This document shows, one piece after another, positions 1 to 773 of a DNA stretch of 773 nt. Source of the stretch: Escherichia coli (GTDB lineage Bacteria; Pseudomonadota; Gammaproteobacteria; Enterobacterales; Enterobacteriaceae); NCBI RefSeq assembly GCF_003334405.1, contig NZ_QOWM01000053.1; one strand, 5' to 3'. The notes below the pieces were generated by a model. It searched no databases. It was not told the DNA's origin and worked only from the letters and a program-made list of their open reading frames with translations. Within the stretch, counting starts at the first letter, position 1. Each line of letters opens with the position of its first letter. Both the position numbers and the translations under genes were made by a program.

Positions 1-773
1 CACATGCTGAGGGTGCTGTCCGGGTGCAGCTCCGGGTCGGGCAGGCGGTTACCTGCCGGGTCTGTGGCATACGGGATGCGGATATCCAGATTCGCTGCGG
101 TGGTGTGAACGCCGGTCAGCCTGCCGGTGGTGCTGTAGCTGTAACTCCGGGTCTGGCGCGGGCTGCTGATGCGGATGAGTTCGCCGTTGTCGTTCCAGGT
201 GTAATCGCGGTCAGACAGCAGGCTGTTCAGGTGCTGGCTCTGTAACTGCCCGGCAGGGGTATAAGCGGTGGTGAGTTCATAACGGCCGAAGCTGCGCAGC
301 GTTTCCCGGTGCAGGCGGTCGCGGGTGTACTCCACCAGCGGTGTGTCGCCGAGTTTCATGCCTGCCAGGTAACCGCTGCCGTAGGTCAGCCATTCCACGG
401 CGGGCAGGCTGTCCGGTATACAGCGGTTCGCCAGCCCCTGCGCGTTGTACGCATGTCTGGTCTCATGCTGCCAGAGCAGTGCTTCCGTCTGCGGGTGATG
501 CACCGTCTGACGCTCACCGGTCAGCCGGCCTTTCTCATCATACCTGTAATGCACCGCCACCCGGTGCCCTTCGCTGATATGGCTGATGTCTGTCAGCCAG
601 CCACGTTCGTCATACTGCCACCGCTCTGCGGTTTCACCCTTCACGGTGCGGTGCGTGAGGCGGTCTGCTTCGTCATAGTGCCAGTGGGTGACCAGACCCT
701 CATCCTCGCTGCGGATAAGTTTGCCGGTCAGGTCGTGGTGATAACGCTGTGTGCGGCCGTCAAAGCCGGTTTC
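1..773 (-). CDS. rhs: Rhs-family YD-repeat protein, internal core fragment (partial at both ends; polymorphic toxin scaffold)
   Basis: Seen in sequence: reverse-complement frame with first full codon at 773..771 (GAA) and last full codon at 5..3 (ATG) is open for 257 codons with no stop; positions 2..1 are the first two bases of the next codon. Translation contains canonical YD-repeat motifs (RTQRYHHDLTGKL, THWHYDEADRLT, ERWQYDERGWLT, VHYRYDEKGRLT, RDYTWNDNGELI, RSYSYSTTGRLT) at about 21-24 residue spacing. Leucine codons are dominated by CTG and third positions are G/C-rich, as in enterobacterial genes. Established knowledge (from memory, not a database search): the stretch GFDGRTQRYH.DLTGKL ... 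WQYD..GWLTDISH.SEGHRVAVHY.YD.KGRLTGE ... LLWQHET.HAYN.QGLANR..PDSLP.VEWLTYGSGYLAGMKLG.TPLVEYTRDRLHRET.RSFG ... TYTPAGQLQSQHLNSL ... IRIPYATDPAGNRLPDPELHPDSTL is the conserved core of E. coli-type Rhs proteins. The specific paralog (rhsA/B/C/D/E or other) cannot be assigned from this fragment. Confidence 0.93.

Follow-up and report, generated by a model that had tools for sequence, protein, structure and literature searches.

The cage function of YD repeats has been structurally established since 2013. The motif itself, YDxxGRL[I/T], was defined on the Rhs proteins of E. coli (Wang, Zhao and Hill 1998, as cited in PMC10684867). [quoted passage not shown] The toxin of P. protegens RhsA is enclosed by 76 antiparallel strands, and the eukaryotic teneurins carry their toxin-like domain outside the shell (PMC8765631). 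At the DNA level, rhs genes are known for long near-identical cores, the 'rearrangement hot spots' from which the family takes its name (PMC3150448). A GC-rich core followed by an AT-rich tip is the classical Rhs signature, and arrays of displaced orphan toxin tips with immunity genes have been described for rhs loci (PMC2935791).

The window analysed here, a stretch of 773 nucleotides of E. coli DNA, is almost certainly an internal piece of an E. coli Rhs polymorphic-toxin core that contributes about 11 YD hairpins to the sheet of the cage wall. One minus-strand frame runs through 1..773 as 257 codons with zero stops and is open at both window ends, and the other five frames contain 1-14 stops each. 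Megablast against the complete E. coli genomes finds 100% identity across 773/773 bases to rhsA and rhsB of E. coli K-12 (including MG1655), with a match in 3901 of the 5426 genomes at a median of 5 and a maximum of 10 places per genome; since rhsA and rhsB are identical over the window, its locus of origin is ambiguous between the two. The window product corresponds to residues 667-923 of the 1377-aa RhsA, inside the conserved GC-rich Rhs core, and to the same segment in RhsB, and in MG1655 it lies inside the 4134-nt rhsA (4003..8136 of a 12.8 kb region), which is flanked by yibF and yibA. The NCBIfam profile RHS_core is matched by the fragment over positions 675-937 of 1261 (E 3e-160); the score of 535 bits falls under the 2000-bit whole-protein cut-off, as expected because only 257 of the 1261 positions are present, and the full gene holding the window sequence passes this equivalog cut-off with 2647 bits.

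The plus strand was also considered for antisense genes. Its ORFs of 73 and 78 aa were rejected, nothing being annotated there, as was the frame 3..773, whose A/V/G-rich product has no repeat matches and no annotation. This last frame, antisense to the coding frame and in register with it, contains a single stop in 257 codons; a stop in it requires a TTA, CTA or TCA codon on the sense side, codons that the GC-rich gene seldom uses, and the near-open frame is most likely a composition artefact.

Outside the window, the full protein contains the RHS repeat-associated core domain (TIGR03696, Rhs_assc_core) at residues 1170-1247, a DPIGL-x18-DPLG aspartyl autoprotease motif at 1221-1246 and the core/tip boundary PVTNTDPLGL at 1238-1247. 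The GC content of the core is 59-66% (about 62%), that of the tip and downstream cassettes 33-47% and that of the flanking selAB about 55%, with a sharp break between 4001..7500 (core) and 7501..12000 of the rhsA region. The neighbours of rhsA are selA, selB, yibF, yibA, yibG and yibH; yibA lies downstream of rhsA and is reported to neutralise the growth inhibition caused by the C-terminal region of RhsA (PMC3150448). Further downstream of rhsA-yibA are two annotated pseudogene fragments with RHS repeat-associated core domains (9029..9985 and 10492..10710); the first is followed by yibG, which encodes a sel1 repeat protein, the second by an Imm57 immunity gene with a frameshift. The annotation shows no vgrG or hcp in the 6 kb to either side of the window. 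E. coli K-12 is not known to have a type VI secretion system, and the export and activity of this K-12 copy are therefore uncertain.

The established cage-wall mechanism is the best supported one for this gene because of the RHS_core match, the autoprotease motif, the GC break and yibA. Each unit of about 22 residues would form one beta-hairpin, composed of a strand whose last residue is aromatic (usually Tyr), a five-residue D-x-x-G-R turn and a second strand started by Leu; tight two-residue links, often x-G, would join the hairpins, and together the units are predicted to build a continuous antiparallel sheet. By homology, this sheet would spiral in the whole protein and close into a cage that surrounds the variable C-terminal toxin; judging from the homologues, the cage may shield the producer cell and carry the toxin during export. 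Release of the toxin would probably be the work of the aspartyl autoprotease located where the core ends, by analogy with Tse5 and P. protegens RhsA. The identity of the gene, the reality and significance of the repeat, the predicted hairpin sheet and its likeness to solved Rhs cages are the demonstrated part of this picture. Older literature ties the YD repeat to carbohydrate binding and a role at the cell surface (PMC2935791), in line with which the repeats would mainly serve as a carbohydrate- or ligand-binding array and not as a toxin cage; this is very improbable here, given that all solved homologues found by sequence or fold are closed cages and that the gene has an autoprotease motif, a toxin tip and a downstream immunity gene.

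The original prediction, made from the sequence alone, had named nine repeat peptides, six described as 'canonical' YD copies and three as degenerate. Each translates as written at its plus-strand coordinates in one minus-strand frame, and all nine are real units, but two further units were missing from the list, WLTYGSGYLAG (351..398) and IPYATDPAGNRL (42..77). The complete set emerges from the family: a scan of 1.84 billion representative proteins yielded 5332 relatives at E <= 0.001, and an alignment of the orthologous segment from 27 of these, which share 29-76% identity with the query, has eleven units in its consensus, where the repeat is plainer than in the E. coli sequence. The three degenerate copies are consensus units 5, 7 and 8, and the missed ones are units 6 and 11. 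The eleven units are given below with residue numbers of the 257-aa window product, the family consensus and the evidence for each, comprising profile matches, an AlphaFold2 (AF2) model calculated from the family alignment ('model') and the score in a position-specific matrix (PSSM) that was trained on 12 RhsA units, all outside the window, with the 99.9th percentile of shuffles as its threshold.

Unit 1, 702..752, minus strand: residues 8-24, TQRYHH, turn DLTGK, LIRSED, with His in place of Tyr at the YD position; consensus RYxYDxxGxL; Pfam RHS_repeat 14-46; PSSM 7.5; model.
Unit 2, 642..695, minus strand: residues 27-44, LVTHWHY, turn DEADR, LTHRTV; consensus YxYDxxGRL; Pfam; PSSM 11.5; model.
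Unit 3, 573..635, minus strand: residues 47-67, ETAERWQY, turn DERGW, LTDISHIS; consensus YDxxGRL; Pfam; PSSM 7.4; model.
Unit 4, 498..566, minus strand: residues 70-92, HRVAVHYRY, turn DEKGR, LTGERQTVH; consensus YDxxGRL; Pfam; PSSM 14.0, the top score in the window; model.
Unit 5, divergent, 414..479, minus strand: residues 99-120, LLWQHETRHAY, turn NAQGL, ANRCIP; consensus HxYDxLGNR; PSSM 5.3 (per-position p 0.0008); model.
Unit 6, divergent, 351..398, minus strand: residues 126-141, VEWLTY, turn GSG, YLAGMKL; consensus WLTYGSGHLHG; model.
Unit 7, divergent, 288..344, minus strand: residues 144-162, TPLVEYTR, turn DRLHR, ETLRSF; consensus FERDxLHRE; PSSM 1.6, not significant; placed by the consensus, by conservation and by strand, five-residue turn and strand in the model.
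Unit 8, 228..281, minus strand: residues 165-182, YELTTAY, turn TPAGQ, LQSQHL; consensus YDxxGRL; PSSM 11.5; model; hhalign.
Unit 9, 165..209, minus strand: residues 189-203, RDYTW, turn NDNGE, LIRIS; consensus YxYDxxGQL; Pfam 193-226; TIGR01643 193-227; PSSM; model.
Unit 10, 96..155, minus strand: residues 207-226, QTRSYSY, turn STTGR, LTGVHTTA; consensus YxYDxxGRL; TIGR01643; Pfam; PSSM 8.2; model.
Unit 11, 42..89, minus strand: residues 229-244, LDIRIPYATDPAGNRL, with its core at residues 233-244 (42..77); consensus FDPAGNRL; PSSM weak, -0.5; first strand only in the model.

The spacing from turn to turn across the whole window is 20, 21, 24, 31, 22, 20, 20, 22, 20 and 24 residues (mean 22.4), and the roughly 21-24 residues claimed for the first four Tyr anchors hold up, with 20-24 measured. 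Pfam RHS_repeat (PF05593) has three matches in the fragment (E 6.6e-5, 1.1e-4 and 8.9e-4), and all six 'canonical' copies are covered by them because each match spans two successive motifs; a literal Y-D is present in only three of the six, with H-D, W-N and Y-S in the rest. TIGR01643, whose cut-off is 15.8 bits, scores 30.3 bits on the fragment and 137.5 bits on the full protein. The PSSM identifies 8 non-overlapping units where 0.24 are expected, namely the six canonical copies, AYTPAGQL and HAYNAQGL; the shuffle maximum is 3, none of 5000 shuffles reaches 8, and the other five frames give zero PSSM repeat matches. The supposedly degenerate copies are unequal: AYTPAGQL scores like a canonical unit and HAYNAQGL moderately, but EYTRDRLHRET is at chance level on the E. 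coli sequence alone, its score being reached by 63% of shuffles. Neither EYTRDRLHRET nor the core of unit 11 has a significant PSSM score on that sequence. That EYTRDRLHRET is a genuine unit is nonetheless supported by the family consensus FERDxLHRE and by the predicted structure. In unit 11, D238, A240 and N242 are invariant in the family and the unit aligns to YRYDAAGNRL of Tse5; the confidence of the model drops there, near the end of the fragment.

Comparison of alignment slices adds evidence of another kind for an internal repeat. Three non-overlapping slices with canonical pairs match one another in hhalign with a probability of 98.0-98.4% (E 5.5e-15 to 1.9e-13), while the two central slices reach 24-78%, the alignment of unit 5 onto canonical units being weak, and WLTYGSGHLHG is aligned onto YxYDxxGRL with a probability of 77.5%. 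The pattern [YWF]x[YWF][DNS]xx[GDNS][RKQENW][LIVM] occurs 5 times against 0.004 expected (0 of 20000 shuffles), a count that is descriptive only because the pattern was written with the sequence already in view. BLOSUM62 autocorrelation of the single 257-aa sequence has no significant lag, the best z being 3.0 (lag 42) against a shuffle 95th percentile of 3.46; a fixed lag is too blunt here because the unit length varies from 20 to 31 residues. At the DNA level there are just two direct repeats of 14-15 nt, each 93% identical (606..620/669..683 and 112..125/517..530), which encode WQYDE/WHYDE and GRLTG. As the DNA retains only such 14-15 nt remnants, the repeat is an old one, preserved in the protein sequence. 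The autocorrelation result and these DNA remnants, together with the shortness and degeneracy of the motifs, are what could speak for chance matches in a GC-rich coding region rich in Tyr, Asp, Gly and Arg, with no true repeat. The odds of this are negligible: it is refuted by the independent Pfam and TIGR01643 matches, by the PSSM units that no shuffle reproduced and by the 98% profile-profile probability between non-overlapping segments, and every motif falls at a hairpin turn of the AF2 model.

The predicted structure agrees with a repeat of beta-hairpins. The AF2 model has a mean pLDDT of 91.8, with 200 of the 257 residues at 90 or above, and is all beta, its 21 strands forming about 11 hairpins in a continuous antiparallel sheet in which five-residue turns alternate with tight two-residue links. 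At all nine motifs named beforehand it has a strand, a five-residue turn and a strand, the turn falling on the D-x-x-G-R position; the additional unit WLTYGSGYLAG is predicted with a three-residue GSG turn. The hairpin pattern of the model agrees with what has been published on the Tse5 barrel. In a Foldseek search of the PDB, Tse5 (8cp6, E 3.9e-14) comes first, followed by Tse15 (8uy4), Advenella VgrG-Rhs (8qja) and P. protegens RhsA (7q97), these top four having E 4e-14 to 3e-13 and TMq 0.55-0.58. Rhs proteins of Salmonella bongori, Photorhabdus and Vibrio come next, and then Tc BC components (4igl, 5kis, 6h6f) and teneurins. Superimposed on the Rhs cages, the isolated fragment reaches a TM-score of about 0.55-0.58 with an rmsd near 7 A, so that a model of the fragment by itself does not recover how the sheet curves in the full protein; values this modest can be expected when a strip of the sheet is modelled in isolation from the remaining cage. 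The fold of the window segment is a prediction, because no solved E. coli RhsA or RhsB structure is among the matches of a sequence search of the PDB. The assignment of the YD repeats to the beta-hairpin shell of an Rhs/Tc-type toxin, which the original prediction had put forward, is supported both by the position of the window in the rhsA/rhsB core and by its alignment to solved Rhs barrels. The two checks that could have overturned that prediction, detection of internal repeats and structure prediction, both came out in its favour. A segment from a Tc TcB/TcC or teneurin-like YD shell, in place of a T6SS-type Rhs effector, can practically be dismissed: YenB/C, TcdB2-TccC3 and teneurins do appear in the fold search at probability 1.00, but their matches (E 1e-9 to 1e-7, 10-17% identity) are weaker than those of the Rhs cages (E about 1e-13, 22-30%), the gene scores above the equivalog cut-off of RHS_core, and the annotation of the 12.8 kb around rhsA contains no gene of TcA or TcB type.

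Within the Rhs cage wall so identified, residues 126-162 (window 288..398, minus strand; units 6 and 7) show the strongest conservation within the segment among 28 Rhs homologues, exceeding that of the canonical YD units. R151, D152 and E157 are invariant in the family alignment, and Y131, G132, G134, L154, H155, R156 and R160 are each retained in 90% or more of the aligned sequences. The structural papers on Tse5 (PMC10684867), P. protegens RhsA (PMC8765631) and Tse15 give no account of this conservation. It is unlikely, though worth considering, that the block is a specific functional site of the cage and more than wall; it could then act as a lock between spiral turns, as a docking site for the unfolded toxin or for a plug, or as the opening point for toxin release. 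Its conservation may reflect packing constraints only.

Overall, the window belongs to the founding member of the Rhs family, and the finding is correct and already known; these same E. coli proteins served to define the YD repeat in the 1990s, so nothing in it is new. Its value is that of a positive control, in which raw sequence alone gave the frame, the motifs, the periodicity and the structural role correctly. The map of 11 hairpins with their turn positions could aid the design of RhsA and RhsB constructs, and the central block 126-162 is the one region that could still hold something not covered by the textbook picture.

Among the known systems, Tse5 is the top match by sequence (E 1e-20, Tse5 residues 577-825) as well as by fold, with 30% identity in the latter, and the matched segment lies within its barrel since it falls between the two plugs. 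Tse5 and the window share the YDxxGRL hairpin units and the conserved block WLTYGxGHLHG...ERDxLHRE; at about 30% identity they differ in their N-terminal and toxin domains, and the surface protrusions are Tse5's own. The same spiral beta-hairpin cage is found in A. baumannii Tse15 (8uy4/8uxt), Advenella VgrG-Rhs (8qja), P. protegens RhsA (7q97), V. parahaemolyticus RhsP (8h8a) and P. laumondii Rhs1 (7pq5). These cages are matched with E 6e-17 to 3.5e-9 by sequence and E 1e-13 to 6e-10 by fold, Rhs1 (7pq5) being absent from the sequence-search matches and present by fold; they are 14-25% identical to the window and differ from it in their N-terminal plugs or clade domains and in their toxins. 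The Tc BC complexes (YenB/YenC2 4igl, TcdB2-TccC3 6h6f) and the teneurin shells (6fb3 and others) have the same YD hairpin-shell architecture at 10-17% identity. Tc toxins divide the shell over two proteins whereas rhsA is a single 1377-aa gene, and membership of the TcB/TcC group fails on gene organisation, with no Tc partner genes at the rhsA locus and a likeness of fold only. Teneurin fold matches have 11-17% identity and TMq 0.24-0.50 (counting the teneurin-like 9ifo), and membership fails on the host, teneurins being eukaryotic transmembrane proteins with EGF, NHL and FN-plug domains and the window gene lying on the E. coli chromosome. The closest system of all is RhsA/RhsB of E. coli K-12 itself (RHS element core protein, NCBIfam NF041261), from which the window does not differ over its 773 bases.
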